In this document: positions 220 to 45,900 of the stretch, one piece after another
Layout: each line of letters opens with the position of its first letter
Numbering within the stretch: position 1 is the stretch's first letter
NCBI GenBank assembly: GCA_964106645.2
Contig: OZ067042.1
From: Podarcis pityusensis
Taxonomy: Eukaryota
Length of the DNA stretch: 64,000 bases
Direction: 5' to 3' (one strand)
Notes under the pieces: model-generated
What the model saw: the letters and a program-made list of their open reading frames with translations, nothing else
Database searches by the model: none
What the model was told of the DNA's origin: nothing
Translations under genes and position numbers: made by a program

Positions 220-399
220 AGCAAGAAGCGGCAATATGACCAGGAGATTGAAAACCTGGAAAAACAGCAGAAACAGACAATAGAGCGCTTGGAACAGGAA
301 CATACAAATCGCTTACGTGATGAAGCAAAACGCATCAAAGCAGAACAAGAGAAAGAATTGTCCAAATTTCAGAACATGCTGAAAAACAGGAAAAAAGAG
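220..399 (+). CDS. SLK: SLK exon (180 nt)
   Basis: ttttcag|AGC...GAG|gtaaat; [16 protein letters not shown]...MLKNRKKE. Confidence 0.95.
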
Positions 400-3300
400 G
401 TAAATACTATTTATTTAGTTGGAGGAAAGAAGGTTGGTATTTCTTGGTCTCCAGTGATGTCTGCAGTCTTACTTTGAAAAAAAGATGTATCACCATAAGA
501 TGCCTCAACAGTAGATGTATTTTTATAATAATATTTAGCACTGAAAAGTTTTTTAAAATAAGAAACAGCCATGTGCAATGAAAATAGTAACCTTAGATAG
601 GAGCAAAGAAAATATAATGAAAAAACAATTATGTGGTGTAGATGTCTCCACCCTTATGATTTAAACATCATCGTTAGCTTAGGAGTTTTGCCATTTATTT
701 GGAACAGTATCAAATGTTATATGTAGTTAATACCTGTATGTTACAGACAATGTAAAATTGAGCTAGGAGTTCAATAGGGAGAACTGCTAGAATCCATTGC
801 ACACATATCTGTCACATGTGCCTCTTTGGATATGTGTGGCAAGTAAATATTTTCCTTACTATATTCAGTACATATAAAAGCAGCACAAAGGTGGAGGGAT
901 GAGGATACTTGTGCATTGGTTCATGAAACATTCATAGCAAAATGCAATGGTTTTTTGTTTTTCTTTTTACTTGTAGTTGAATTTGTTAAAAAGGCGATTT
1001 AATTAACTTTGTGTGGAAGAGTCTAGAACTCTGTGCTGTGGAAGACTACTCTGTGCCTCCAGAAAATCTTAAAACTGCAATCTTAAGCAACTTTGTTTGC
1101 ATTCATAATTCTGATAGCAAGATTTATTGTTGCCAACTTGGTTCTACACATTATAAAGCCATTAATCTAATAATCTAGATTCAGCTGTTGAGCCCTGCTA
1201 GCAGAAGCCTGCACGTGGACATTGAATAATGCAACAGGGCTTTCTTCCTCCCTCCGCACAGCATTAAAGTGGCTCGGATGGAGAAGGATAACCTCCAGAA
1301 CAGCACACTTTCCATTTGGCAAGATGAAACACTTGTGCTGCAAGAACGATTACCATGGCACTACTTTGAATTAGTCCCAGTGAACCTAAGTTAGTGATGA
1401 CTGCAACTTCAGTGAATCTACCCTGAGTAGGACTAGCATTGGATACAGTTGTACCTTGGTTTGCATACGTCTTGGTTTGCATATATTTCGAATTACAAAC
1501 ACATCAAACCCAGAAGTGCATGTCCTGATTTGCAACCTTTTTTTGGATTGCAACCCATTTTTTTTGGATTACGGACAAAATTTTTTGGGAGGCCCCATTG
1601 GTGAAAGCGCGCCTTGGGTTAAAACCTGTTTTGGTTTACAAACAGACCTCTGGAACAGATTATGGTTGTAAACCAAGATACCACTGTATAACCCTTGATC
1701 TTTCAGAATGACTCACATGGGGGATTGATTGTAATATATGTTAAGAACTAGAAATGACCCAGTCAGTGATAAAGGCATTTTTAAAATTTAATTTGAGTTC
1801 AGCAGAGAGCATAGTTGATTTAAAATCAAACCAATTTGAAATTTATATTCTTTCATTACACTGGATGGAAGAAATACAGCTGTGCAAAATGCAGAAATTC
1901 TACCTATGATCTCATTGTTCTGCAGAAAGTGCCTGTAATCTTTTACTTCTCATCTTAACTTTTAAAAAAGCAGTTCAACAATTTCTAGATAATATACCAA
2001 TTTTGAGGCATATAATATGAATAGATTGCACAGATTTCTAGATGCTTTCATTTGGTTTTTAAACCAAATTTTTATACTAAGTAATATATGTCATTTAATC
2101 TCCAAGATACCATCACTTGTGTTTAATTTGCACAATATTGACTATTACTTCTTCTTTTTGCTGAACTTCTTGCACTCTGAGTCTCTATTGGTAATTGGGT
2201 CTCAAAAGGAAATCTGGTGAAGAGGTTTAATGCACTCAGGACCAATCTTTTTCATTGAACAGTAGCATGTGGTGATTTGGGCTTTGTTTTCTGTGGGTTC
2301 TTTGACTTTTAAACAGCCATTTGTTCTTGGATAGTTGTGACCTCCTAGTTCTTTTGTAGGAAATAACATCTAGAGTACTGAATCTCTTCATGAGAGTATG
2401 AAAAATATACAATCATACTTTTGATTATCTATATAACATGCATTATTATTTCCTGACAAAATGATCCATTAGATCCTTTGACATACATTGCTGAAACATA
2501 TTTGTAAGTGATTGCCTTCTTTGAATGTCACTAGCTAGATAAGCTATATGAAACTGGACACTTGATTTACACTTTCCTCAGCTCTGCAAATGCCCCCTTT
2601 GAGTGGCTTACTTTTATGAAAGTTGTTCTTTAGACAATTGTGTCTCAAATAAGACATAATGTCAACAGTAGCTGTTATTTTTGAGAAATCTAAACATCCT
2701 GCTATTTTGGAGCTTTTCCATGACGGTAAAATCATTTGTTGTCCCTCCCAATATCATTCTTGCTTTGACAACGGTCTCAAATTCCTTCGTGTTATACTGA
2801 ATGATTGCATAAAAAGTAAATGCAAAAGCATCTCTAATTAGTAGTTGCATGCAAAATGAAACTAGTTTCTAGAATACGATTAGTTCATGCACTTCTTTGT
2901 AGAATGCAGTTCGCAAATGCTTTGTGCATGTCTGCTTCTTCCATCCATCTTCTGCCAAGCTAACTCTTCTGGCTTCAATGCATGCTCTCTGATAACCTTT
3001 ATAATGCCTGACCTGCTCCTCTCGTATTCACCATAAAATGCTTGCTGTGGAGAAAAAGGGTTATCTTCCCCACCTTCTGCATGCTTGTGCACTATAGGTT
3101 TTTAATGAAGTGGAGAAAGCACCAAAAGAGCTGAGAAAAGAGCTCATGAAACGCAAGAAAGAGGAACTTTCTCAATCCCAGCATGCTCAGGTAACCGCAG
3201 CAGCTTCATGCTTCTAAAAACAAGCAAGCAGCTTTGTTCACAATAGCTTTAACCATTCCATAGTGGTTGCTTTTTGTTTTCCCTCTGAGTAAATATGTTA

Positions 3301-6300
3301 TTAATTTGTAATGACTGACCATTCTTAAAACCGTAGCTCAAATGTGTCATATAAACAGAAGTGCAATATATTCAGTATTCATTTACTTAGATGTGATTAG
3401 TTAGAACGACAGCCAAAGTTATAAAAATGCAATTTATGTAGTTAAAGTGTGTATTCAGGTGTGGATATGAATTTCAGGCTGTAATGTCTACTTTATTCAG
3501 GGCATTTACCATAAAGAATAATGTTATCAAAGTGTAAAAGTAGTAAATAATATTTTTATAAGCAATTTTTCATTATATCTTACCTTTGAATCTTTTAATC
3601 CCAGGCAATGCAGTTGACATGATGGTGTCCATGTTTATTATTTAATGGCTTGCCTGTACTTTCTGTGTTCCAAGCATGCTATTGCAGCAGACATACTATT
3701 GATTACTTTTCCTGTCTGAAACGAAGCGCATCTGAACTATATAAGGATCTGGATGTGTGGTAGTGTATATAGTGAATAAGGCAATGAAGAACTCTTCACT
3801 TTTTGTTGACATTCCTTGTCTTGGTATTAAATCCCAGACTAAGTACAAATAACTTCTGATATCCATGAATACTTCCTATGTATTCATGTACAATGAGACA
3901 GAAGTAATTCTGAAGTAATGCTTCAGGTATAAATTTTTAAAGTGAGCTGTATCACAGTTTCTGTACAAGGGTGTGAGGGGGTCAGGAGACTGCTGCTCAA
4001 CTCCCTGAATGACAGAGAAATCTCAGGAGTCAGTGCACTAAAGAAAGACAGGTGGAATGTTAGGGGAGTAAAAGATAGGAAAGAGGGTTAAAATGGAGGC
4101 ATTGCCAGACTGTCCAAAGCCAGTTTATCTCATGTATGGAGCAGGATCCTGCTTTTGCAGATATTCACAGTAGTGTATGCTACTTCCCTCTAAATACAAC
4201 TGTGTATATTTGAATGTGCACATCTCTTGGAACTGGATATTTGAAAAGGTGTACGTCCAGCCAATATTGTACTACATGAAGGCTTATTGAGTAACTACAG
4301 TCTTAAATATATTGGAGAAAATTCATTAATATATTTTGGGCACAGAGAGTTAACAATATAGGTTAAGTAGGACTAGGTTGTAGGGCATTATCTAGCAAAA
4401 TAAAATTAATACTGAAGACATGACATAAAGGTTTTTACTTCGTTTTGCAATTGGTGTCTTTATGAATACAGTGTAATTTTTGTTCTCATAGCTCCACCCA
4501 CATCACTGTAGGTATAAACTATAGCTTCAGAAATTTTACATCTTTTAACAGAAGTAATTCAGTACAACTTCGACTTTTAGGGAGGGAGGTGCTCCACTAA
4601 TGAGTCATACAGTCTTATTGCTTATGTTCGGTGTTTGAATGCATGGTTTGTGCTTGCATTCTGACCTCGGAAGTACATTGTATTCTGCTCTGCAGGGCGT
4701 TGCTCAGGTTATGATTCAGTCTTTTCAGTTGTCCTCATGTACCCTCTTCAATGCAATAATGCAGGATGTAAGTCCAACATGCCAAAAATTGGATGTTTCT
4801 TCTGTAGTTCTAGCTTGTTGTTCTGCTTTTTCTCTGACACGCATGTGCTGATGAATTAAAAAAAATAAATCTAAAAATGTGTTCATCTGCACAAAGGTTG
4901 TGATGGACAAACTGGGCAAATGAGTCTTGTTGATTTTCAGCACATGTGTGAAACCAGTGCTATGTTTTGCTTTTCTGTGTGCAGTGAAACAGGCATTTTC
5001 CAGAATGCTTCCTGATACCACCTGACAATGGGTGTTCCCTGCTGTACCTTATAGAGTCAGCCATCCTAAGTTTTGACTCATGGGGCAAGGAACACCCTTG
5101 TGACATTTTTTTCTTCTCTGCCTTGTGCAGTAGTGGTAATTTATTTTTTAAACAAACCCGCTTCTACCTTTGTGTTCTCTCTTCTGTTCCACCAGATGGT
5201 AGTTGGGATTTTAGTAGGAAGGTGGAAAGTTTGCTTTGCAAACTTTATTGAAACAGCCTTTTGTTACATGGCTCTGGGAATCTGTAGAACATCTAGGCTC
5301 CCCCATCAGCACTGTGTACCAAATATCTCTGTCTCTTTTACCGTATTTTTCGCTCTATAAGACACACCTAGTTTTTGGAGGAGGAAAACAAGGAAAAAAA
5401 TATTCTGAATTTCAGAAGCCAGAACAGCAAGAGGGATTGCTGCGCAGCGAAAGCAGCAATCCCTCTTGCTGTTCTGGCTTCTGGGATAGCTGCGCAGCCT
5501 GCATTCGCTCCATAAGACGCACACACATTTCCCCTTACTTTTTAGGAGGGAAAAAGTGAGTCTTATAGAGCAAAAAATACGGTAATTGCATAACAATGTT
5601 AGTGATCACAAGCCTGACATGGAAGTCTATGTCAACTGACCTTTCGTTCACAAAACTACAGAATAGGCTGTGGTAATATCCTTTATCTAGGTTATTCTCA
5701 TGTTCTGTGTTCTAAAACATACTCATCTAAACTGAGGAAGCCTCAGGACTGAAACACTACTTGCTTTCATTTCAGTTTAATAATCCAGCTCCTGCAATTT
5801 GGCAGAATTGCTGCTTGAGAAGGGCAGGTACATTTGCCAATTGTCTCACTTCATCAAAGCGATTAAGTAGACAGTGGACCTTTCTTGTTGTTGACATATG
5901 TTTCTACAGATCTGGGTTTTTGGATTTGTCTCTACAGATTTTTGGTTTTTGTTGTTGGAGCTTTTTTCCTGCTTTTCATTAGAATTTTGATAGTGGTAAA
6001 CTACAAACTTTTTCTCCCTCTCTTCCTCTCACATGCCACCCCCCCCCCCGGCAGCATCCTCTGAAATTTGCTCTGGGGTTTCCTTCAACTCTCCAGAGCA
6101 GATCTGTGGAGTCACAGGGAGTTAAGGCAATTCAATCCCTAATACAGTGGTACCTCGGGTTACATACGCTTCAGGTTACATACGCTTCAGGTTACAGACT
6201 CCGCTAACCCAAAAATAGTACCTCGGGTTAAGAACTTTGCTTTAGGATGAGAACAGAAATTGTGCTCCGGCGGCGGCAGCAGGCGGCCCCAGTAGCTAAA

Positions 6301-9300
6301 GTGGTGCTTCAGGTTAAGAACAGTTTCAGGTTAAGAACGGACCTCTGGAACGAATTAAGTACTTAACCTGAGCATTTGTAAAGAATTGATTCTGAAGGTA
6401 AAGCTTTCAGTTTTGGGGGGATGTTTAAAATAATGCATATTTTCTATAGTTCTCAGGAAACACAAGCTAACCAAAGTTGAACATACTTCAGTCTCACTGA
6501 CTTTCATTAAGAGACAATTTAAAAAAGAAACTATACTTTAACTATATATAGGTTGTACAGATATTCCACACTTACATAATTTATAATTTCCAGAAACTAT
6601 GTCTGTGCCATTGATCTAATACATATATAATGAGAGTGATACCTAAACCATGGAATCGTGCAGTAGGCTTCCAGGTCCCCCCTTCTGGTTAGTGTTAACT
6701 CTCGTTTGGTGTTATGTTTACCTCACCACTAAATATGCTTAGTTTTTAAACTAAGATTTGAAAATCTACTTTTCAAGTTTTGATTAAAACTAACCATGGT
6801 TAGCACTGGTGCAAACTTAATGTTGCATTGTAGTTAATGCTAACCAGGGGTAATTTGCATGCAAAAAGGGAAAGGGATCTTAAGAACCTAATGTCCCCAA
6901 ACACAGAGGATCACTACCATTACTGCTGCACTGTTCCATTGTCCATCTAATTTCTTTGCTACATTGTGCTTTTCCTGAAGAGGATGAATAAATAGAATCA
7001 CATAAGTTCATTTTGGGGTTTTTTGGCAAATGGATTCCTCATTTTCCTCCTCCCCCACCCACTTGATAGAAGCTGCTGGTTAATCCCTTGTAGCTTTTAA
7101 AAGTGAGTTAGCATGTGGCACAGAGAAGCTGCTGTTAGGAAAAGAAGTGACCAATTCTGATGGATGTACAAATCTTCCTATATGGTGCTTTCTGTTGGTT
7201 CTTGTGAGATGAGTAGGAACATCAGACATCGGACTTTGATAACATCTTCATCAAATTGGTCAGATGCAATTTGTCTGAAGATAACTAGCAAGTAAAGAAT
7301 TGCGATCAGGGCGGATGATTTCTGTGCAACCTGGCCTGGAGGTGAACTTTGCAGATTTGTTATTATTTTCTCATTTGTGTCCATAAATCACACGTCTTCC
7401 TTTTATATGAACCTTTTGAACTACAAGGACATCAGATGTGACTTACCCAATGCATAAAACATGGGCCTGTCTCAACATGAAGTGTCCCTGTTGTATTTGA
7501 TACAAGATTTCTGCATAAATTTTATTATATAATAGAGAGAGATGCACATAATACCATGTGCCCACCCCACACCTGGAAATAATGTGTAAGTGTTCAGACA
7601 TTGTTAGATTTCCACACAGCCTTCTTTCCGTTGGTGGAATGATCTGTATAGGATTGGATCAACTTCTAATGTAGGGCCAATATTTCTAGTTATTTTCTGA
7701 GCTTGTGACATCTGTTTTCATAAAGCTCCTTTCCACAAAGTAGGTGATAAATACTTCACATGTAACCACTTCCATTAAAATAGCTACACATGACTTGTTA
7801 TGTTAATCTTTGGAAGCCTTTTTCTCATGTATGTGCACTGTTCAAAATGTGCATCTGGAAGCCATTGGCCTCATTTCCCCAGCATTTGCTTATCTACCAG
7901 CCTCACATTACACGCTATAGATGGTGCAGCTTAATAAGTACATCAGTTGCCTAATGTGAAACTGTTTACAGTGCCATTGAGGAGCCAATCTTGTAAATTC
8001 TGCATTTTGAATTTTGCAAGTGTTTGGTCTTTTAAGCTATCACGTGTCCTCTACCTGGTCTGGGTATCTTGCTCTGAAACATGAAAATACAATGTTGACA
8101 ATATAATAGGTATCCTTATCTTGGAGAGGATTCATGTGGGCCAGAGGTTTCCCCAGACTTTGCACATGTTCTTTAAAAGACAGATGTACACATTCTAACC
8201 TAAACCTTTTCAGTATCCTTCACACATAGAGTGAATCAAGACAGTTCAATTGATTCTCAAGAGTAATTTGCCATCCATTGTTAACAGATAGCAAGAGAGA
8301 GCTGGTTCTGTGCAGCAAATATTCTTGTTTATATGAAGGCTTTTTTTTACATGGGTTAAATCCCCTCCCCAGTTTCCATTTCTGCTTGAAAGTAATGATT
8401 GAGCCAGAAAATAGACATTCTCTTCCCACAAAATACATTAAACCTACCTCAGTCGCAGTAGTTTTCAGCCATTTATTTATATTTGCTGTTCCTTGGACTA
8501 TTCTGACCTTCATCCCACCCTGCTTTCTTCCTCCTTAAGTGATCCCAGCCATTTATGGATCATATAATGGAGATGTCACAATAGCACTATGTACTGAATC
8601 TGATATGGCTATTTGTCAACATCAAGAAGTCTTTTAGAGTAAAGGCAGTGTTTCCTAAACTGGACAGTGATCAATCCCAGTCCCCCAGGGATCATGAAAT
8701 GGACACTTTTTACAGCTATTTTTGTAACAATCTACCAAAAAGAAAGAAACCAGAAAATTTCAGGGGGTGGGGGTGGGTGGCTTTCTTTTAATTTTGAACA
8801 AGTTTCTTCTGAAGCAGCTCAGCCCTAATCTTCTCATTTGTTGCTTTCCTAAACAGAATTTAGTTTACTTGGTAATTTAATATAAATGCATTAATAATAA
8901 TTTGCAAGCAAATTTGTATAAGAGTTGAACTTAATGTCCTTAAATTAAAGATTCTCTAAGTTGTGTGTGTGTTTTTTCCATATTTGCTGATTAGCATAAA
9001 GGCTGTACAAAGACATAGCAGGGTACAGCAACTGATCTGACAAGCTACTTGCCCACGAAGAATTAACTTGGGCTGGCAAGTGGCTGCCCGCAAGGCTGTC
9101 TCATATATAATTGGCCAAATTATATGTTTGCTGAAAAAGCAGTACTTGGTGGAGGGAAAAGAAAGAGAGAGAACTCATAGGGCCCATTAGTTTCCCAGTA
9201 TAGGTTTGCTACTGTTGAGAAATGCATGTTTCCCCTCACACTTTATAGTGCTGATTATTTCAAATGCTGTGGTAAGTACAGCAAGCTCACTTGCTGTGTA

Positions 9301-12300
9301 AATGTTTTAATTGACCCTTAGAAAATAATGTTGTGATTTGAATATGGGTTACCCAGGTTCAGATCCCTGTTTGAAGTTTGGCTTGTGGCAAAGTGTATGC
9401 ATCTTTCGCTCTCCGCATATTGCGCCTTACCTGCTAGTTGTGAGCTAAAAGGCTGCTCTGAGATCCTTTAGAAGAAGGCTGTATACAAATTAAGACATCT
9501 GAGACTTGTGCATAATGTACTCAATTTGGCTTAATTTCTGATAGGAGCAAGAGTTTGTACAGAAGCAGCAGCAAGAACTGGATGCGTCACTAAAGAAAAT
9601 CATTCAGCAGCAAAAAACTGAGCTAGCTACCATTGAGCGGGACTGTCTGAATAATAAGCAACAACTCATGAGAGGTATTTCTCCCTTTCCCCCTAGTGTT
9701 GGATTACTGTTCATCAACTTAAAGAAGCATTAAGGGCTCTGGGCACCTAGTACAGCTCACATGCAAGCCCCATGAAACTTGTGGAATGATTCATGTCCTA
9801 AATTTATGTCCTTCTAGTGAAGGCATGAAAATCCACTGAAGACTGTAGCTGTACATAAGAGTTTTTATTAGGCATGCAGAAAATGGTGTACAGAATCCAT
9901 TTTAAAATGGCTTGTCTGTTTCTGAAACAAGCCTACTTGTGTCTACAATTTTGGTGAATTGTTATTGGATAACTTGATGGGGAATAATTTCTTCAATGCA
10001 TTTCTCCATTAAATATTTAATTGGGGTTATTCTGTTATTGATTGCTTCGTGAAATACATTGTATAAGGAATGTTTTGGGGGTGACTCCTCAGTAATTTTG
10101 ACAGAATTTTTCTTCCCTTCTAGCCCGTGAAGCTGCAATATGGGAACTAGAAGAACGACACTTGCAGGAAAAACACCAACTGCTAAAACAGCAACTGAAA
10201 GATCAGTACTTCATGCAAAGACATCAGCTGCTTAAACGGCATGAAAAAGTTAGTACGATCCTAGTTCATCCTCTTTGCTGGCTCCAAAGCCTGGTTCAAA
10301 AACATCCTGTCCTCCTACCTATATTTATTTATTGCCTTTTTTCTTTAGTATTTAATACTTTTATATTTTGTGTAAGTTATTTGATATTTAGTCCCAATGT
10401 TCATAAGGTCAAAACAGCGCCTTAAATTCAGGGAGGGAGGGACACACAAACACTTTAGACCACCATTTCTCAACCTGTTGGTCATGACTCACAAGTGGGT
10501 CACAGTACCTGAGCAAGTGAGGTGTGGCCTTTATAAGTAAAACCAAAATAAGTATTGCTTTTGCTCTGAACTGGTATGATGAATACCTCTTGCAGGTTTT
10601 TGTTTGCATATTCTAATGCTGTGTTGGCACATGTAACCAAATGACAGAGTGCTGCTCCCACCCTAGCATGGAGGCAGGTTTGCCTCCTGCATTTCCTGAG
10701 AAGGCATGGGTGGTTTCTTCTGTGGAGGGGGTTAGGAAAGGGACGTGTGCCTTTCTACCCCTATAGTGCAAGGGCAGGTGTCAAGCTTTATAGGCTTAGC
10801 ACCACCCTCAGTCCATCCTTTCTTGCTTAGTCAAAATAATAATATCATTATCTTTTGTATCAATAATGATCTGAGACCATGTCTAGCAACCGTCAAAACC
10901 TGCATCAACCTACTTGTTGACAAAATGCAAGCTCAGCTACCCCATTGATACTTGCCAAAATGGACTTTTTCATGACTAAAACTATTTAAAATAGCCATAA
11001 TTTGTTATATTTAACATAGCGGTTTTTGAATAAAAATTACAGCTTTTGAAGCAATACCGTATTTTTCACTCTATAAGACGCACCAGACCACAAGACGCAC
11101 CTAGTTTTTGGAGGAGGAAAACAAGAAAAAAAATATTCTGAATCTCAGAAGCCAGAACAGCAAGAGGGATTGCTGCGCAGTGAAAGCAGCAATTCCTCTT
11201 GCTGTTCTGGCTTCTGGGATAGCTGCGCAGCCTGCATTCATTCCATAAGACGCACACACATTTCCCCTTACTTTTTAGGAAGGAAAAAGTGAGTCTTATA
11301 GAGCAAAAAATACGGTATATTGCAGTCAGATAGCTGGTCTTACATTCCTATAAATAAAATTATGAATAGCATATTTTTATAAACGTTTACACAAATTTCA
11401 TATCAATAGGGGTATTAAGGAAACTTTTCCTTGGATGCCTCAAGTAATGGTTATAAAATAGACAAAATTGCAGTTAAACAGATGGATGTTGAAGGCCTAC
11501 CGTATTTTTTGCTCTATAAGATGCACCAGACCATAAGATGCACCTAGTTTTTGGAAGAGGAAAACAAGAAAAGATATATTCTGAATCCCAGAAGCCAGGA
11601 CAGCCAGCGGGATCGCAGCACTGCAATCCCGCTGGCTGTCCTGGCTTCTTGCTTGGCCGCGCGCAGCCTCTCCTGGGCAAGGGGAGCCTTCATCCCCTGC
11701 CCGGGAGAGGCTACACACGGCTAAGGCTCCCCCAAGAGCCGCGCTCCCTTTAACGAGCTGCTTGGAGTGTGTGTGTGGCTCTTGGGGGCTTTTCCCCGAG
11801 GAGGGAGAAGGGCTGCCGTCCTCCCTCCTCAGGAAAAAGCCCCCAAGAGCCGCACACACGCTCCAAGCGGCTCGTTAAAGGGAGCACTGAGCAGAGCCTC
11901 CCGCCTGCATTCGCTCCATAAGAGACACACACATTTCCCCTTAATTTTTAGGAGGGGAAAAGTGCGTCTTTTAGAGCGAAAAATATGGTTGCGAAATCCA
12001 TGTGACAATAAAATGATGGGTCACTATACCAAGTAAATTTGGACTTGTGGGTCATTATACCCAAAGGGTAGAGAATCACTGGTTTGGACAATAAATAAAT
12101 AAATAAATGAAAACTATGAGTGATGGTAGTAGGCAAAAGTAGAGCTGCAAATTTTGAAATGATATTATTTAATGATCTTTTCAGTTGGCTGAAATTTGTG
12201 TGTTGTTATTACTGCTGGTTGACTAACCGGTTATTTTTTTAAAAAAATATTTATTGTCAGTTTTTCTGATACAGAAAATTTAATTATGAAGTGTTTTATT

Positions 12301-27645: not shown

Positions 27646-30600
27646 TCTAAACAGTCCACAGCACTTTAGATAGCATGGGGTAAAATATGGATATACTTAC
27701 TTTGTATGTTTTCTGACACTCTGGCTGCCAACTCATTGTAATCCAGTGCCCCAGCAAATGATCCACTATAGGATCCTCCTGCACCTGTAGATCTCATCTG
27801 TGATCCGCCTGCTCCAGTTGAACTACCGTAAGATCCACCCGCTCCAGCACCGTAAGATCCACCCGCTCCAGCACCGTAAGATCCATCCGCTCCAGCACCG
27901 TAAGATCCACCTGCTCCAGTCGCTCCACCATAAGAACCATCAGCTCCAAGAGATCCACCATAAGAGCCATCAGCTCCAAGAGATCCACCGTATGATCCAC
28001 CAGCTCCAAGTGATCCATCAGCTCCAAGAGATCCATCAGCTCCAAGAGATCCACCATATGCTCCATTGCTTCCCAATGAGCTGCTGTATGATCCCCCTGT
28101 GGCAAGTGATGCATCATAGGATGTGGCAGAACTTACGGACCTGCCATACGACCCATCTGAATTTAGAGACCTTCTGTAAGATTCAGCCATCAAGCTACCA
28201 TCTCCTCCTATACCAGGTGGTCCTGGAGGCCCGGGGGGTCCTCTGATGATGCCACGAATATCGTCACCTACAAAACACAGCAATGGGTATTAATGGAGCT
28301 GCACAAGTTATAATGGAATGTTCTACAGGGGTGCTGAAGCCAGCAAAGTGTGCTTTGGGACGGCATCCCAGAGGGTCACACGATACATCAGATCTTCTTC
28401 AAGGGAGCTCTGATGTTGAATCCTTCTCCCATCCCCACAACTTCCACAAACCCAGCCCTATCAGTTTTGGAACTCTTGACATCCCACAACCAAAATGTGT
28501 TGGGCCGGTTTGGGGGCATGCAGAGGGAGCACTGGAATCTGAAGGATCTAGTGCCTTCCCAATTCCACCCATTATTCTTAACAGGAGTGCTTCTCCACTG
28601 TCAATTCCACCCACAGGCAAGAACCTGATAGTATGTTAATGATATTGATGTAAATCTCTTTAAGTTTACTGAAGCCGGATGCAAATTTTAGTAAACTTGG
28701 AGCAGCATGGTGCCCCAAAGAGAACCTATTTCTGGAAAGCTTTTCATTAAAGCAAGAGGATGCTACTTGAGACTGAGTTGATGGTTAGAGGTTATGCCCT
28801 ACCAGCTAAGGTGCTGTTTTTTAGACCTTCTGGTTCCAGTAAAGGAAGCACAAATTAAAGAACAAGTCTCTTCCATAAATGAGACATGTCAAAGATGACC
28901 AAACAGAAATAAATCTTAGGATCCACCTTAAGACAAAACCATATTCAATACTTTTGATTTCTTGAGGGACTTTTCAGTCCAGGATAGCAGCTGTAGTAAG
29001 CATTTCTCAGCTGCTACAAAAGAGCTATGAGATCAGCCCTAGGCATAGTGCCAGGATGAGGCCCAGACTTGAAATTTCAAGAAGAGCAACAGCTGGTTAT
29101 AGCAATCAAAATTGTGGAAGTGGTTTTGTGTGTGTGACTTACTAGTAAGGTACTTGATCAAGTCACTTCTGAACTGGTCAGTCCAAAGATCATCACCATA
29201 GGAAACAAGGCCACTTCCTGACAAGCCAGGTGGTCCTGGAGGGCCTGGCGGACCAGGTGGTCCAGAAAGTGTGAAGTATCCCAAACCTTGGAAGAAGAAG
29301 AAACTGGGTTAATAATGTGCTTTTTAAGAAAGTGCAAGCAGACCCTTTGCTTGAATTCTTTTTCCTATGTCACCCCCCCCCCATTCTAACAGCAGAATCA
29401 TATGCACTTAGCCACCATTATGTTTAAAAACAATTTCATTGGCATGTCAAGATGGCATGCTATTTTATACCTGTGTAATTTTTGATTCAGTTTTTTTTGG
29501 GGTGGTGGCAGCAGGGTGGGGGTGGGGTGTTGACACCCTTTTACCCTGTTAGCAAGGAAGGTCAAAGTATCACATAGCTTTCATTTTAGGGAGCTACCAG
29601 CAGAATTTTAGATCAGCTGATTGACCAATCATACCATTTTGTCACTAGCATCCTTTGCTGGTGATGACTAACACACCCAGATCTTACGATATTGAGATTC
29701 ACTGAATTGCTGCATGTTGAACGTGGATCAAATTCTTTACTCTGTCCTAGAAAGCCCAACAACTCCCCACCCACCACAAGAAATCCCAGACTCCTAAAAG
29801 GTACCCAAGCGCAGAGTATGGCAAATCATATTTACTTTGTAAGTAGGCGGAGATGTCCTCTGCAGTGATGGAGGAAAGCGCACTGCCTGGTGGGCCTGGT
29901 GGCCCAGGTGGCCCTACAAAGCGATCAAATTCTGAGTCTGAAAGAAGGAAGAATGTGAATAAGTATCTGAGGCATAATTTACACACACACACACTTTTCC
30001 CCCACTATGCAAGCAAATCCCCTCTGTCCCTACCCACATTGCCAGGACAGAATAGCTAAACAAAAGGCAGAAGGACTTTTCTGTCCTACTCTGTTAGCTT
30101 GTATAACAAAGTGAGGATTAAGAGTGGCAGAATTAGCTATGTCTTGAGGAATAATTAGGACTATGCACCTCACACTTGTAGTCTCTTTGCAAAAGAAATT
30201 ATAAAGCACATACTACTTTTGACAGTGATCTTACAGCTCATTTCTAGAATGTGCCCGTAGGAACATAAGAAGCTGCCTTATACAGAGTCAGACCATTGGT
30301 CCATATAGCTCAGTATTATTATTTATTAAATTTGTATACCACCCTTCATCAGAAGATCACAGGACACTTCACAACATAAAAATACAAAATGAGAACACAA
30401 AACACATAATAAAACACACACACCTTTAACCCACAAATACCTTTTAAAGACAATAGAATGTTCAATCAGCCTAAGGCCTGGTTATAGAGAAACATTTTTG
30501 CCTGATGCCTAAAGATACGTAATGAAGGCACCAGATGGGCCTCCTTGGGGAGTTTTCCACCAGCGTATTATCTACAAAGATGGACAGCAGCTCTCCCGGG

Positions 30601-36930: not shown

Positions 36931-39900
36931 AAGAAGAAGAAGAAGAAGAAACCCAAGTCCCTTGATTTCAAAGTGTCTACTCTGAGCATGACTTAGATTC
37001 AACCAACTGTCTTGAAAGTTGTTACTTCCATACTGAAATCCACACCAACATTCACAAGTGACACAACCAACACTAAAAAGTAATATCTTGTGACAATGCC
37101 CAAAGAAACATTCTATCTGTGTCTTTTTTTCTTTTTCTTTTAAGGAATAAAGTTGAGAATGAGGAAAGCTGAGAGGAAAGTGAAAATTTTGGCAGGGTAA
37201 ATTGCAGGCAGAACAAAAAAACCCCAATACAATAAATGAAAACTAGATGGGCTAAGTATCTGACTTGGTCTATATAGTAAAATGATATTTCAATTAACTC
37301 AGGATCCCCATGTCTCTAAAACAAACCAGCGACTCTAAATGACCACTTACCCTCTTATTTTATAGCAATAAGTAGGTTTGGGCTTAGTTTGACTTGGTTT
37401 TGAATAGGAGATAAAAGTTTATTGTTCCAAAGTAAAGATAATGGTCTGGTACATGTGTCACATTAAATTACAGTTAAAATAAACTTGGGGCTCATCCAAA
37501 TTTATCTCATCTAGGCTATGCCTAGAATGCACAGGCCTAAGGGGTTTTCTGCTTGATTGGGTCTTAGTGGTTTCCCCCTTGGCCTGCTTCTTTCCAAAAG
37601 AAAACCCACTCTTTGGCAATAGATTGGAACAAATGGCAATCTGAGGGAAACCTCAATTGCCATTTGCTCTGACTGAGTGCTAAAGAGCAGTTTTTCCCAG
37701 GAAAAAGCAGTAAGACAAGAGGAAGTGTGGGTTAGCCCTTGGTTATATTGCTAAATTTGTGGGTACTTCACTCCTCTCAATTCCTACTGCTGCCACCCTG
37801 CCAGAAAAGAAGCCATGGTCTGGCTTGTCATGTCATACAAACCTGGACTTATGGCTTGTTTGGGAGGGCAGAAACAAACCATAAGAACATCTGAAGGCAT
37901 AAGCAGTCTGTTAGAAAGTGACAGTATTTAAAGAGTTGTCTTCACAAACAGAAGCGTAGAAGAGACAATTTTCTCTACCTTGAGCAGCTGAAGCACCAAC
38001 TCCCGAACGGATGGTTTCCACAACGGTGGCTTCACCTGGGTCACCTTTCTCACCACGAGGACCTGCATCAGAACATAAGAAATGACAGACTATTTAATTA
38101 AGCAAAAATAAGCACACTGGCTGAAACTCAAGTTGTCAGGTTCTGGTTTCCACCTAATATGCATGTAGGCATTATGTTTTTTAGCTTAAACCTAATCTAG
38201 ATAGGACCTGAACTGGTCCTCAGTTTATGTGTCTTGCATGACAATGATGATACTGCAGAGAGAGATAAGGCCAGAAAAACCTGGGGATTCCTTAATGTGG
38301 ACAAATGTGGAAAGACTGCAGTGAAGTTTCAATTGGTGTGGGAAACCCGTGGTCCTCCAGATGCGATTGGACTACAAATCCCATCCTCCCTGGTCATGCT
38401 TTTTGGGGCTGGTGGAAGTTGGAGATCCAACAATGTCTGGAGGGCTGAAAGTTCCCCAACGCTTACTTAAATGAACAGGTCTGCCAAAAGCATTATGGCT
38501 GCTTGATGTGCTATAGGACTCCTGCATGGAAAATGATTCCTTGTAGGAAACAGCATAACACTCACCCACATATATTGGTCATGTATATGCACCAACATAT
38601 ACCCATAGTGTTATCATCACCTTGGCTTTAGTGTCTTGAATGTAGGAGATCTGTAATTTGTATTACATGACAAAGTCCTAAATAATCAATTTTCCTCACC
38701 ACACAAACTAAACCAAAAATTTTGGAGGTAGTACCAAAAAAAAGAGAAAAAAAAGAAAGAAAGAGATTGCACAAGACTTGTTTTTGGATTGTACTACTTG
38801 AGCTAATGTTGCTAATCTTCCAGTCTACTATACGCAGAGGAAAGGATCCTATACAGTGGTACCTCGGGTTAAGTACTTAATTCGTTCCGTAGGTCCATAC
38901 TTAACCTGAAACTGTTCTTAACCTGAAGCACCACTTTAGCTAATGGGGCCTCCCGCTGCCAGAGCACGCTTTCTGTTCTCTTCCTGAAGCAAAGTTCTTA
39001 ACCTGAGGTAATATTTCTGGGTTAGTGGAGTCTGTAACCTGAAGCGTATGTAACCTGAAGCATATGTAACCTGAGGTACCACTGTACATGGCTTGTAGGT
39101 CATTGATACGCTGTGTCTGGAAATGTATCATTTGCCATCTACACTGTACTTATTTTCATTCATCCACCCCTTTCTCTGAAACTTACAGCAAATATTAAAA
39201 CAGTAAAGCCTAGCAAACAGAAAAGAATGGAGGGGCAAAAAAAGGCAACAAAAAAACCCAACCATCTCTTTTCCCAGAGAGTCAATAAAACAATCATCAG
39301 CTCAGCAGGCCAAGCGCCTGTCAGAAAATAAAGATCTTCACAAAATAGTGAAAAAACATCAGCAAGTGGGTGAAGCAGACCTCTCTGGGCCGGGTGTTTC
39401 AAAGCTCAGACCTGGCCCTGGAGAAGGCTCTCCCCCACATCTCCACCAAGCGCACCACAGATGTCAGCAAGACAGAAATTAGCAGGAAAGCTTATGGAAG
39501 CTGGTTGTCGAACAAAAGCAATTACATCCCTGCCCAAAGGGTTTACAGTGTGAAAGAAGGAAACACAGTGTTATGTACTGAGTTGAATAGGATCCAAACT
39601 GTAGCAGTCTGATTGGTCCTAGAACAATAGGATCCAAAAGGCAGCAGTCTGATTGGTCCTAGAACAATAGGATTCAGAATGCAGCAGTCTGATTGGTCCT
39701 AGAACAATGCAGCAGTATGATTGGTTGGCAGGAACCACCCAATCCTGCTCCAGATAGAAGTGAATCCACAACCTGATTGGCTTACAGTAGAATTCCAGAA
39801 TTAGCCAATCATGTGCAGCCCATTGTGTAAATAATGTATATAAAGCAGATACTGTGAGGGGACATTTATTCATTCCTCCTCACCACTATGAGCTGAATAA

Positions 39901-42900
39901 AGAGCATGAAATCACTTTGCGACTCTGAGTATATTTCACTGGCGACGAGGGTGGGATCCCGCTGAGCTGACTGCCACACACAGCACCGCAGCACCGCCAA
40001 CTGCCGCACCGCTGCCTCGCACCGTGTATCCAGGCTTCAGCTCCGGGGCACAAGGAACTCAGAATGGCAGCCAACAGCAGCTTCTCGCCATTCAACCCAG
40101 CATCTGGAGACTGGGAAGCGTACGCCTCCCGTTTCACCTTCCTCCTAGAAGCCAAAGGGGTCACCGACGAAGAAGACGCCAAGAAGAGGGCGATATTCTT
40201 CAGCGTCTGCGGAGAGGAGACGTTTGAAATCGCCCGGGCTCTCCTTGCGCCTGAAGACGTCGCTACTGTTCCATACAAAACAATAATGGAACAGCTGAAG
40301 GGGCACTTTTCGCCGCAGCCCTCAGTGGTGGCTCGTCGAAATGCCTTCTACGCAAAGCGGCAAGCCCCTGGGGAAACCATAACTGGGTTTGTGACCTCTC
40401 TCCGCCAAGCCGCCCGGTTCTGCAACTTCTCAGAGCTGGAGAACATGCTTCGTGACCGCCTCGTCGGTGGCCTGAAGGATGAGAAGCTGCAACGACGCCT
40501 CTACGCTAAGAAGGACCTAACGTTCCAGGTCGCTCTGGAGGAGGCCCTGGCAACAGAAGCTGCCGAGAGGTCGACCCAAGAGGCACGGCCGAGCCTGCCA
40601 TCCCAACCGAGGGTCCACCATGAAGACCTCACCGACGACTCAGGATCCGACAGGGAGGAGGTGCACCGAGTACAGCAGCGCACTCAAGCAGCGCACAGAC
40701 CACAGCTGCCTCGACGAGAAGGAGGGAACTGCGCAAGCTGCGGGGAGAGTCACGAGAGGAGGACCTGCCGTTTCCGCAACGCAGAGTGCAGGCAGTGCAG
40801 AAAATCGGGACACATCGCCCGGGTGTGTCGGGCTCGGCCCACCCGACACCAGGCATCAGATGACCAATCCAAGAGCCCCAGGTCCCGGGGCCCAACGCAC
40901 CAAGGCAACTCGACGGAGCTCACGGACTTCCAGGTATACCAGTTGCCCCACCCCAACGTAGAGAAAATTTATGTAGAGGTACAGATAGAGGGGGCCCCAT
41001 GCCGCATGGAGCTTGACACGGGTTCAACTCTATCCATAATCTCGGCAAGGACCTTAAGGAAACTGTGTCCCACTGGGGGTCCCAAACTCAGGCCGGCCCC
41101 ATTCACCCTCCGGGACTTCCAGAAACGTAAGGTCCCCACAATGGGGGTGGGGACCTTCAGGGTGCAATACCGAGGGCGGACGCGGCAACTGGACTTGCTT
41201 GTGGTCAAGGGCCCCTACATTAGCTTACTGGGATTGGCATGGTTTGGACCACTGGGGCTAGCTGTCACCGGGGTGAACCACACTAGCTTACAAGTGGACG
41301 TGGACGCCATATGCAAGGAATTTCCAGGGGTTTTCGATGGGAAATTGGGACAGTATACGGGCCCCCCCATTGCGCTACAGCTTGACCCCGCAGTACGACC
41401 GGTCAGGCTCAAGGCCCGCCGGGTCCCGTTCGCCTTGAAACCCCGTATAGACGAGGAATTGGACCGACTCGTAGAGCAAGGAGTGCTGGAGCCGGTGCCT
41501 AATGCTCCCTGGGAAACCCCAATCGTCACACCCGTCAAGCCTAATGGTTCGGTCCGCATCTGCGCAGACTACAAATGTACCATAAACAAGGCCCTCACGG
41601 CCCACGCATACCCAGTGCCAGTGGTCAGCCATGTCCTTGCCACCCTGGCTGGGTCGAAAATTTTTGGCAAGCTGGACTTGGCCCAAGCATATCAACAGCT
41701 GCCAGTAGATGAGGCCACAGCAGAGGCACAGACGATTGTGACGCACAGAGGAGCGTTCAGGGTAAAGCGGCTGCAATTCGGTGTCAGCGTGGCACCAGGC
41801 ATATTCCAGAATATAATGGACTCTCTCCTTAAAGGGATTCCTGGCGTCACCCCCTTCTTCGATGATGTGTTGATTGCCGGCCCCACACCAGAGGAGTTTG
41901 AGGACCGCCTCCGCACCGTTCTGCACCGTTTCCAGACGGCGGGTCTCAAGGTGAAGCGGGAAAAATGTCTACTAGGAGTGCCTCAGGTGGACTTTCTGGG
42001 ATTTATGGTGGACGCAGAAGGGGTCCACCCGACTGGGGACAAGGTACGGGCCATTTGTGATGCCCCAGCGCCCAAGAGCAAGACTGAACTTCAGGCCTTC
42101 TTGGGACTATTGAACTTTTACCATTCCTTCCTTCCCCACAAGGCGGCGGTAGCGGAGCCCCTACACAGACTCCTGGACAAGCGGGCCCCTTGGGTGTGGG
42201 GCCAGCGCCAGGAGGCCGCATTCCAGGCAGTCAAGGACTTGCTTGTCTCAAACTCGGTCTTGGCACACTTCGACGAGAGGCTGCCGGTGGTGCTAGCATG
42301 CGACGCCTCACCCTATGGCATTGGAGCTGTCCTGGGGCACCAACTCCCGGATGGAAGAGAGGTACCGGTGGCGTACTTTTCCCAGACACTCAACACAACC
42401 GAGCGGAACTACTCGCAAATCGACAAGGAGGGTCTGGCAATCGTAAAGGGAGTAAAAAAATTCCATGATTTCTTGTACGGGCGGCCCTTCACCGTGGTGA
42501 CTGACCACAAGCCGTTGCTTGGCTTGTTTGCCCCCGAAAAGCAGACCCCCCAAGTGCTGTCTCCTCGCGTCCTCAGGTGGTCAATTTTCCTTGCCAGCTA
42601 CCAGTATGCACTGATTCACCGACCTGGGAAGGCGATGGGCCATGCGGACGCCCTCAGCAGGCTACCACTACCGGAAACAGGCCCTGACCCAGCACCTGCA
42701 CAAGAGGTTATGAGCCTGGAGCTGCTTCCCGACCGCCCCATTCAGGCACAAGAAGTTGCACACCATTCCAAGAAAGATAGGGTCATCTCCCGGGTCCTGG
42801 ACTGGGTGTGGAGGGGATGGCCCAGCAGCAGCCCCGGGCCAGAATTCGCCGGCTACACAACCCGCAAACATGAACTGTCGGCCCACAAGGGGTGCCTGTT

Positions 42901-45900
42901 ATGGGGAAGCAGAGTCGTTGTTCCCCAGCCCCTCTGCAAAAGGGTCCTCACAGCCCTACACGAGACACATCCAGGGGTAGTAAGAATGAAGGCCCTTGCC
43001 AGGAGTTATGTGTGGTGGCCGGGGATCGATGGAGAGATAGAGGCCTGGGTCAAACACTGCCAGGCCTGCCAAGAATCCCGCCCAGACCCCCCAAGGGCCC
43101 CAGTCCAGTCCTGGGAGTCCGCCCGAGCACCATGGTCACGCCTGCATGTGGATTTCGCTGGCCCCTTTCAGGGGAAAACATTCTTCATAGTGGTGGACTC
43201 CTACACCAAATGGCTGGAAGTCGCACTGGTACCGTCCACTTCCACGTCCGCAGCCATCCGGGTACTACGCAGGCTGTTTGCAACCCACGGGCTCCCTGAC
43301 ACTCTCGTCTCAGACAACGGGACTGCATTTACGTCAGGAGAATTCCAAACCTTCACAGCGCAGAACGCCATCCGCCACATCCGTTCGGCGCCGTTCCACC
43401 CTGCCACCAATGGCCAAGCAGAACGCATGGTGCGGACCACCAAGGACACCCTTCGCCGCATGACGCAAGGGGACTGGGAGTACCGCCTTGCCACATTCCT
43501 TCTAGCACAGCACAGCACCCCCAGCTCAACGACTGGCCGGAGCCCCGCTGAACTACTAATGGGTCGGCGCCTTGCAATCAGATTGGACCGCCTTCACCCC
43601 GATAGAGCTCAGGATGAGGTAGTGGTGGGGGAAGGCAGGAACCCCCGGACCTTCGAGGCCCAGGACCCAGTGTACGCAAAGAATTTTGGGGCAGGCCCAG
43701 CATGGGTACCCGCCACAATCACCAGGGTCACTGGCCCCGTGTCGTACGAGGTGCTAACGGATGGGGGGCAATGCTGGCGCCGCCACTGCGACCAGATACG
43801 GCGACGATTCCCGGGAGAAAACCAGGAGGAGGACAGGTCAGAGGAGTCCCAAGGGAACAGCGGGGCAGTGAGGCCCATAGAGCAGGAGGGGCCAGCAGGA
43901 GAGGCAGAATCAGTAAATACAGAGAGGACCCGTGAGGCCGAAAGGACACCGGAACCAGAACCACGACTGAGCGAGCCGGTTGCACCAGACCAAACAGCCG
44001 CATCACAGCCAGCATCCTTGGAACACGAGCCAGAACCCGGAGCCCGGACCAGGGAACACCCCAGGCCACAACGCACACGTAGGCCGCCGGCATACCTTGA
44101 GGACTATGAATGCGACCTCCCGGGCAGGACTGGAACTTAGAGGGGAGGGGTGTTATGTACTGAGTTGAATAGGATCCAAACTGTAGCAGTCTGATTGGTC
44201 CTAGAACAATAGGATCCAAAAGGCAGCAGTCTGATTGGTCCTAGAACAATAGGATTCAGAATGCAGCAGTCTGATTGGTCCTAGAACAATGCAGCAGTAT
44301 GATTGGTTGGCAGGAACCACCCAATCCTGCTCCAGATAGAAGTGAATCCACAACCTGATTGGCTTACAGTAGAATTCCAGAATTAGCCAATCATGTGCAG
44401 CCCATTGTGTAAATAATGTATATAAAGCAGATACTGTGAGGGGACATTTATTCATTCCTCCTCACCACTATGAGCTGAATAAAGAGCATGAAATCACTTT
44501 GCGACTCTGAGTATATTTCACACAGCTTGATAGACAAGTAATAAGGATGGGAGGAAGTAGCAACGTGTGTAGCGGGGGGCGGGGGGGGGGAACAAGGCTA
44601 GGCTGGGGCAGAAAGACTATGGAGAAAAGCAGAGTTTCAGGGAGGAGGTGCTTTGCAGAGTTTCAGGGAGGTGACCTCCCTGAAACTTTTAGAAGAGGCT
44701 GAAAGAAGATGAGCTAAAGCGGAGCACAGGGAAAGACACATCATAAGGGGTGATGACAGGGACTGGAAAACAAAGGAAGGAATCCAAAGATGCAGTTGCA
44801 CCGAATGTATTACCTTGAGATCCAGGAAGTCCAGCTGGGCCAATAGGACCTTAGGGGGAAAGAGGGGGGAAGTTAGATCACCTTAGTGGATAAAGCAACC
44901 TTAGTGGATGAAGCTCCTCTTGAGAAATGGAGCAGAAACTTACAAATAATATAACTGCCTGAAAGGCTGAGTTAAAATTTAAACAGATTTTGATAGCCAT
45001 TGGCATGGTACACAACTGTCAAGTGGGTGATAGCTTTGAAACAAGTAATTTCTCCCATTGTCCTATTCTCTTTGTACTTCCCACCAAAACACCCTTTTGC
45101 ACTCTGTGAGCATTCTCTGTTTCATTGAGTAGAGAAAACAGAAGGTACTTAAATGAAAAGGTCCTGGTAGGCAATTCCAGCTACAGCAGGTATGCTAGTT
45201 TGAGAAAGAAAGGAGTGTACTCTTCTCTAGAAAGGGATAGATTCCAGTTGGTGGATAAGTTTGGGGATCACTTCACACAAATGTGGATGCTATCGGGTGA
45301 AAACTGTTGTATTCCAATTCCATGTGTTTTTTTAAGCTACAGCGCAAGAAATAGCACTAAGCAGTGGCAAAACCATACATCACCAAGGCAAAAGGAATGC
45401 TAATACATAATAGTATTTGTGTGTGTGTGTGTTTCCTCTACAAGAGGTTCTCAAGTTATAAGCATCAGCCAGAAATCCAGTCCCATCACCAGCTTTTCAA
45501 CACAACATTGGCCAGATAATGAGAGACAAGTAGGGAGCAAGTCTTTGCAGACAGCTGTAATGGTCCATATTGAGAGGAATTACTGCAATGAAAGCAGAAA
45601 GATCTGTAAATTTCAGTTCTTTCTGTTTTTCATTTATCTATTCAAAATTTGGTTCTCAACATTTCTGCAGCAGTTTGAGAATTAAAAAAAAAAATTCTCA
45701 TAATTCTTCAGCAGTTTCGTGCAGATTACTCCTAACAAACAAATTTGCCGTTTTGACTAACATAAACATTTTTGCAAGCAATTTATCCTCATATAACATG
45801 TTTTATGTTAGGTATTTTCATGAATATATTGGTTGTTATGCAAACCTTTTAAAAATATATGCATTTTGTGAACATTGGGTGGTTGAAGAACTGCATCACA

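Follow-up and report, generated by a model that had tools for sequence, protein, structure and literature searches.

A probable 72-nt cassette exon of SLK in Podarcis pityusensis, absent from the named human records compared, recurs in predicted isoforms from sharks to mammals

Results

SLK exons in the window

The stretch of Podarcis pityusensis DNA analysed here (64,000 nt, hereafter the window) opens inside SLK, which lies on the + strand. Exon 12 (human numbering; 220..399), a constitutive exon ending in phase 0, aligned by tblastn at 97% to residues 878-937 of zebra finch SLK, and exon 14 (9545..9674), constitutive and starting in phase 0, aligned at 98% and carried RNA reads. STK10 is located on another contig and reached 51%, so the flanking exons at 97-98% to zebra finch SLK exons 12 and 14 are those of SLK and not of STK10. 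Between them lies exon 13 (3098..3190), a 93-nt ESRP-promoted cassette encoding a charged peptide of 31 aa, 90% to zebra finch isoform X1. Supplement rows of Burguera 2017 (PMC5703972) give exon 13 as ESRP-dependent in human, mouse and zebrafish, and RBFOX2 represses the human exon according to the accessible part of 10.1101/2022.10.28.514146. Correspondingly, four RBFOX-type TGCATG motifs (2846, 2925, 2979 and 3078; 2846..3083, + strand) precede exon 13 in the window, a density of 4 per 298 nt where 0.26 would be expected in 300 nt, which matches the RBFOX2 repression of human exon 13 described in that source. In the accessible parts of the respective reports, exon 13 bears a nuclear localisation signal and controls nuclear SLK (PMC12423296, PMC12621887), the form skipping it is cytoplasmic (PMC12423296), and its inclusion changes SLK localisation and apoptosis (PMC9132324). 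In addition, short interspersed repeats are present in the SLK introns at 5337-5584, 6143-6372 and 11055-11316.

Sequence and splice signals of the 72-nt exon

A probable second cassette exon, here called exon 13b, occupies 4696..4767 on the + strand, and 23/24 of its residues are those of the bird, frog and sturgeon peptide. The first-pass annotation had described the site as a CAG acceptor and a GTAAGT donor around 24 open codons in phase 0/0, and all of these features are present. The acceptor reads ...TATTCTGCTCTGCAG| at 4695/4696, with 12 pyrimidines among the 17 bases preceding CAG, and the donor reads GAT|GTAAGT at 4767/4768 (GTAAGT, 4768..4773). The acceptor region (4654..4695) comprises a CTGAC branch-point candidate at 4661, the single branch-point-like motif before the exon, followed by the pyrimidine tract, a TGC at 4686-4688 and CAG. 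Its in-frame read-through resembles that of genomic records (GGALYSALQ in P0003 and GGALYSDPQ in the mammal type). The exon has 24 codons without a stop, and its length is a multiple of 3. Among 10 acceptor/GTRAG-donor pairs in the two introns it alone is both frame-preserving and open, and of the GTAAGT sites in the window (28, counting both strands) that of this exon is the only one to yield an open phase-0 exon of 45-150 nt. The 72-nt stretch is single-copy in the P. pityusensis genome. Taken together with the orthologues described below, we regard 4696-4767 as almost certainly a real exon.

The neighbouring motifs lie exactly where they had been placed, namely ACTAAT at 4596 (4596..4601), which we take to be a QKI-type motif, the RBFOX-type candidate TGCATG at 4640 (4640..4645), 56 nt upstream of the exon, and GCATG at 4841, part of an RBFOX-type candidate element GCATGTG downstream (4841..4847; all on the + strand). 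No enrichment was found near the exon; the upstream 300 nt contain 1 TGCATG (0.26 expected) and the downstream side 1 GCATG (0.43 expected). The downstream GCATGTG element is possibly conserved: His-Val follows the peptide in the fish-type read-throughs and in most of the mammal type, as GCATGTG would allow, though this is seen at the protein level only. RNA structure prediction for the exon was negative (folding z 0.54), and an Rfam search with it returned 0 matches. The encoded peptide is hydrophobic as proposed (GRAVY +0.67, 1 charged residue), whereas that of exon 13 is charged (GRAVY -1.47, 14 charged residues).

RNA reads over the locus

Reads from three raw RNA runs and one contig run (4 of the 24 listed), about 6% of each raw run, were mapped to 3170-9700, a range that begins in the last part of exon 13 and in which repeats filled the tables. 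The 72-nt exon had no depth in 4/4 runs and no splice joint was listed, while exon 14 itself drew only about 7, 8 and 25 reads. Run X1 contains 8/8 words of the region of the 72-nt exon according to the index, yet it also showed no depth there. No RNA dataset was listed among those containing words from 4680-4790. Most of the placed reads were drawn by the repeats at 5337-5584 and 6143-6372. All isoform support for the exon comes from automatic gene models, in which both inclusion and skipping forms are on record in other species.

Conservation from sharks to mammals

A query made of the 72-nt exon with its in-frame flanks gave 110 matches among 181 candidates, which are cluster representatives only and consist of 100 full-length SLK-type records, from sharks, sturgeons, teleosts, frogs, birds and one marmoset, and 10 genomic read-throughs. 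A query with the marmoset junction gave 205 matches among 432 candidates, of which 120 were listed, and added goat and many more teleosts. Within the records of at least 900 aa (n=197), 133 carry the peptide alone, 24 carry it after exon 13 and 2 carry it with intron-derived extensions; the rest comprise 17 with exon 13 alone, 16 with neither exon and 5 that were unparsed. Thus, 159 protein records have the 24-aa peptide at the same SLK junction, and they span sharks, sturgeons, teleosts, frogs, birds and mammals. The similar peptide suggested for predicted fish SLK isoforms does exist (for example, zebrafish XP_005156929.1). The exon had also been called ancient, which is borne out by predicted SLK isoforms, ranging from sharks to mammals, that have this peptide at this junction. 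No jawless-fish or invertebrate match appeared among the protein-record matches, and no named lizard, snake, turtle or crocodile record among the 110 matches, which are cluster representatives only.

Of the 24 columns of the peptide, 12 are invariant among the 159 records, a figure inflated by the fact that this set is redundant and was mostly fetched with the peptide itself. A panel of 10 isoform pairs is the fairer measure, and its mean identity was 94% for the 24-aa peptide, 87% for each flank (24 residues per side) and 65% for exon 13. The window peptide shares 22-23 of 24 residues with the non-mammal records of the panel. Substitutions are mostly conservative (T/A, L/V/I, M/L and G/A), and Cys15 is present in 159/159 records. 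At position 21 (window 4756-4758) the window has Ile, while the 159 records have Gln (150), Pro (8) or Glu (1) and read-through P0003 has Val. Ile21 is a lineage-specific change in P. pityusensis that makes the peptide more hydrophobic.

In the genomic read-throughs, Gln precedes and Val-Ser follows the peptide in 17/17, as CAG and GTA AGT would encode. Moreover, the flanks of fish-type and window-type read-throughs are wholly different while the peptide is kept, indicating that conservation ends at the exon borders. Runs of 5 other organism labels contain 8/8 sampled words of 4680-4790. Reads of two of these labels, D and A, differ from window exon 14 at a minimum of 8 and at 3 listed positions, respectively, and labels that diverge in exon 14 yet share all words around the 72-nt exon suggest an added constraint on the DNA. 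Conservation was measured at the protein level, and part of the constraint on the exon may act on RNA.

The paralogue STK10/LOK has exon 12/14 borders as in SLK in the P. pityusensis genome, with an intron of roughly 985 nt lacking a counterpart of the exon (the best score in a 10-kb stretch was 24, while the true exon scores 111). Because STK10 has no counterpart in this genome, the 72-nt exon is likely SLK-specific, and judging from the records compared it is likely at least as old as jawed vertebrates.

Two groups of records stood out. A faster-changing teleost set (P0079, P0085, P0106, P0107, P0110, P0111, P0135 and P0137; the Astyanax slkb cluster, Alosa and salmonids) differs by Pro21 and further changes, and most of its members combine the two exons, which suggests divergence of a duplicate gene. 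In several songbirds (P0026-P0036 and P0042-P0051), isoform X1 and X2 records both have the 24-aa exon and no exon 13, suggesting that inclusion of the 24-aa exon gives a major form in the sequenced songbird tissues.

The exon in mammals

Absence of the exon from the canonical human isoforms agrees with its absence from all 3 named human records. The further claim that mammals have lost it does not hold, because marmoset (UniRef100_A0A5F4WIM2), goat (UniRef100_A0A452EZX9) and Camelus ferus records contain the peptide. The SSCAVF signature of the mammal peptides, with intact borders, was found in 12 genomic read-throughs. The peptide is present in 3/251 full-length mammal-side records, a set made of the best 120 of 2,272 matches and the listed members of 11 clusters (up to 15 each), and including records assigned as mammalian by similarity. 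The non-mammal records were chosen for carrying the exon, so this contrast is not a controlled rate. It seems that mammals keep the DNA and rarely include the exon. The TGC at -10 (4686-4688) of the window is an Ala codon in the read-through, and the mammal-type read-throughs have Asp or Asn in its place, which makes TGC impossible at that position. SRRM4 works via UGC motifs near the acceptor, as stated in the accessible part of PMC9303857.

Relation to exon 13

A tandem-duplication origin, in which exons 13 and 13b would form a classic, strictly mutually exclusive pair, would suit their adjacency, equal phase and similar size. Isoform sets of 13 species include 11 with both single forms, and 10 of these 11 list no double form, sturgeon being the exception; in two eels, no exon 13 form was among the members listed. 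The skip, 31-only and 24-only forms are all listed for zebrafish, five sharks, two frogs and sturgeon. To this extent the mutual exclusion that had been proposed stands, but double forms exist elsewhere. Both exons occur together in 24/159 peptide-bearing records, and isoform-numbered double-exon records are found in 6 species (sturgeon, white shark and four salmonids), all of them predictions. Double inclusion (93+72) keeps the frame, the branch candidate at 4661 is about 1,470 nt away from the exon 13 donor at 3190, leaving no steric block, and the two peptides gave no alignment at E up to 100. With unrelated peptides, this spacing and in-frame doubles against it, a strictly exclusive duplicate pair is extremely unlikely. 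We read the use of exons 13 and 13b as mostly alternative by cell type and not strictly exclusive.

The 72-nt exon resembles SLK exon 13 (HsaEX0060174, MmuEX0043706 and zebrafish DreEX6061391; the SLK-L/SLK-S switch) in being a phase 0/0 cassette at the same junction of the same gene, conserved from sharks to mammals and with RBFOX-type motifs nearby. In contrast to exon 13, its peptide is unrelated, hydrophobic instead of charged, better conserved (94% against 65%), predicted to be non-helical and rare in mammal records (3/251).

Position relative to the coiled coils

The insertion point is after human SLK residue 928. According to the accessible part of PMC5419656, the predicted SLK coils 826-929 and 942-1038 mediate dimerisation. 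The exon had been placed inside the coiled-coil at the same point as exon 13; the shared junction is correct, but it falls between two predicted coils and not within one. In an AlphaFold2 model of the frog 24-aa isoform, the exon (894-917) forms part of a low-confidence linker between helices 782-890 and 915-1028, residues 891-914 being non-helical with pLDDT 48/41/56. In the model of the frog exon-13 isoform, residues 894-924 are helical except about 901-905 (pLDDT 81-85). Both models are weak (mean pLDDT 52 and 48, pTM about 0.3, monomers, built from 40 and 16 sequences), and 2/16 rows of the alignment for the exon-13 model carried the 24-aa exon. Where columns are near-invariant, low pLDDT may stem from a lack of covariation. 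The PDB contained 0 sequences matching the 24-aa peptide, and the best hit of an ESM Atlas search (0.80) was at chance level. The fold search gave generic long helices only (best Z 9.1 at rmsd 175) and does not support a hairpin or BAR-like fold.

Discussion

Proposed role of the 24-aa segment

Our analysis points to a likely ancient optional exon of SLK, predicted to place a flexible linker between the C-terminal coils. We give about an even chance to the reading in which this linker is a motif that docks a partner protein. The splice signals and frame are intact in the window, and predicted isoforms across the range from sharks to mammals have this peptide at the corresponding junction. Judging from the isoform lists, most transcripts would take exon 13, exon 13b or neither, and some would take both; because of the latter, the exclusion would be regulatory. 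Regulation is probably by cell type, with ESRP including exon 13 in epithelia and other factors, for which RBFOX- and QKI-type motifs lie nearby, including the 72-nt exon elsewhere. Exon 13 is predicted to lengthen the helices, and the 72-nt exon would insert a non-helical hydrophobic segment instead. A segment that is loose, hydrophobic and near-invariant would most simply be a binding motif that folds on a partner, and the 24-aa isoform would then differ in SLK location or binding and not in the catalytic domain. Mammals would retain the DNA and seldom include the exon.

The segment may instead be a hinge or spacer that uncouples the two coiled coils and so alters the geometry of the dimer and the activation of the kinase without involving an outside partner, which we consider unlikely. 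Its insertion exactly between the predicted coils and the broken helix in the AlphaFold2 model fit a hinge, as does the report, in the accessible part of PMC5419656, that coiled-coil mutations reduce dimerisation and ezrin phosphorylation. Also, the optional peptides of 24 and 31 residues are both 3 mod 7, otherwise a 1-in-7 coincidence. A spacer, however, has no need of 12 invariant, mostly hydrophobic residues unless they pack on the twin segment in the dimer. It is also very unlikely that the stretch has been conserved chiefly as a regulatory RNA element or a relic, with little or no peptide-bearing protein made, at least in this lineage. DNA words across the exon and its flanks are common to several organism labels, the window has the unusual Gln21-to-Ile change and mammal records seldom include the exon, all of which would suit such an element. 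Nevertheless, the frame, both splice sites and the peptide persist while the flanking read-throughs diverge, neither RNA structure (z 0.54) nor an Rfam match was found, and isoform-numbered records of many species contain the exon.

Two further readings assign the hydrophobic residues a role in localisation, and both appear quite improbable. As a membrane anchor, the peptide would be a hydrophobic loop, perhaps S-acylated at Cys15, holding SLK at the cortex near its ERM substrates. GRAVY of +0.67, a best 11-residue hydropathy of 1.39, a single charge and a Cys15 present in 159/159 records are in line with this, but the peptide is too short and polar for a transmembrane helix, its amphipathic moment is weak (0.37 against 0.67 for exon 13) and no fold match backs a membrane-shaping domain. 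The other possibility is a putative CRM1-type nuclear export signal opposing the nuclear localisation signal of exon 13. Under the class 1c definition of nuclear export signals, the required spacing is provided by V2, M6, F10 and L12 in 14/14 distinct variants. Exon 13 governs nuclear SLK in the accessible parts of PMC12423296 and PMC12621887, but 72% of 20,000 shuffles of the peptide also fit an export consensus, the invariant Ser, Gln and Cys would be unexplained, and the skip form is already cytoplasmic in the former source.

In a wider reading, which we hold to be unlikely, the exon would define a third SLK isoform of jawed vertebrates whose invariant hydrophobic motif would work in opposition to the cancer-linked exon 13 (docking, export or membrane attachment as against nuclear import). 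Mammals, possibly including humans, would then keep the exon intact but turned down, perhaps via loss of the acceptor UGC, with use restricted to certain cell types and overlooked or counted as SLK-L.

Comparison with known exons and isoforms

SRRM3/4 neural microexons share with the 72-nt exon a UGC just before the acceptor (4686-4688), frame preservation and high conservation, but 72 nt exceeds both the microexon class and the short class (28-50 nt) given in the accessible part of PMC9303857. Text matching, table contents aside, found no SLK in the SRRM3/4 supplements of PMC9303857 (18 files) and PMC12626424 (12 files). The supplements of PMC5703972 (6 files) had only 93-nt SLK rows among the matches listed, and those of PMC5989265 (12/15 files) had one 93-nt SLK row and no 72-nt exon. 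No second SLK cassette exon appeared in the supplements of PMC5630039 (11/27 files) and PMC8187152 (3/4 files). Published SLK work, in its accessible parts, describes two isoforms, and neither the peptide strings nor a second SLK cassette exon was found in the accessible literature; other supplements or VastDB may list the exon. The predicted SLK isoforms of zebrafish (XP_005156929.1, X2), zebra finch (XP_012430027.5, X3), Heptranchias (XP_067858056.1, X2) and marmoset (UniRef100_A0A5F4WIM2) contain orthologues of exon 13b at the same place. They are automatic and lack a description, and P. pityusensis differs in having Ile21. The 72-nt exon is a deeply conserved cassette exon that is already present in public automatic gene models and was not found in the accessible literature.

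A second optional exon at the exon 13 junction, better conserved than exon 13 itself, points to an unstudied function of the SLK C-terminal domain, and it is an easy knockout target in zebrafish or chicken. In exon 12-14 RT-PCR, the 24-aa product would run only 21 nt below SLK-L and could be miscalled. The significance is moderate, as events of this class are ordinary, automatic annotation already includes the exon and its mammalian use is apparently rare.

The neighbouring collagen gene

A many-exon collagen gene, presumably COL17A1 by synteny, is marked by 23 Gly-X-Y stretches on the - strand (22989-55052) and lies tail-to-tail with SLK. At 27825-28116, tandem repeats of 24-30 nt overlap a Gly/Ser-rich coding stretch of this gene (- strand), possibly a length-variable coding repeat. 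Identical 40-nt x 3.1 tandem arrays at 39586-39708 and 44168-44290 bracket a GC-rich stretch (58-60% GC over 40001-44000), and 39586-44290 resembles an LTR-type element that has entered an intron of the collagen gene.
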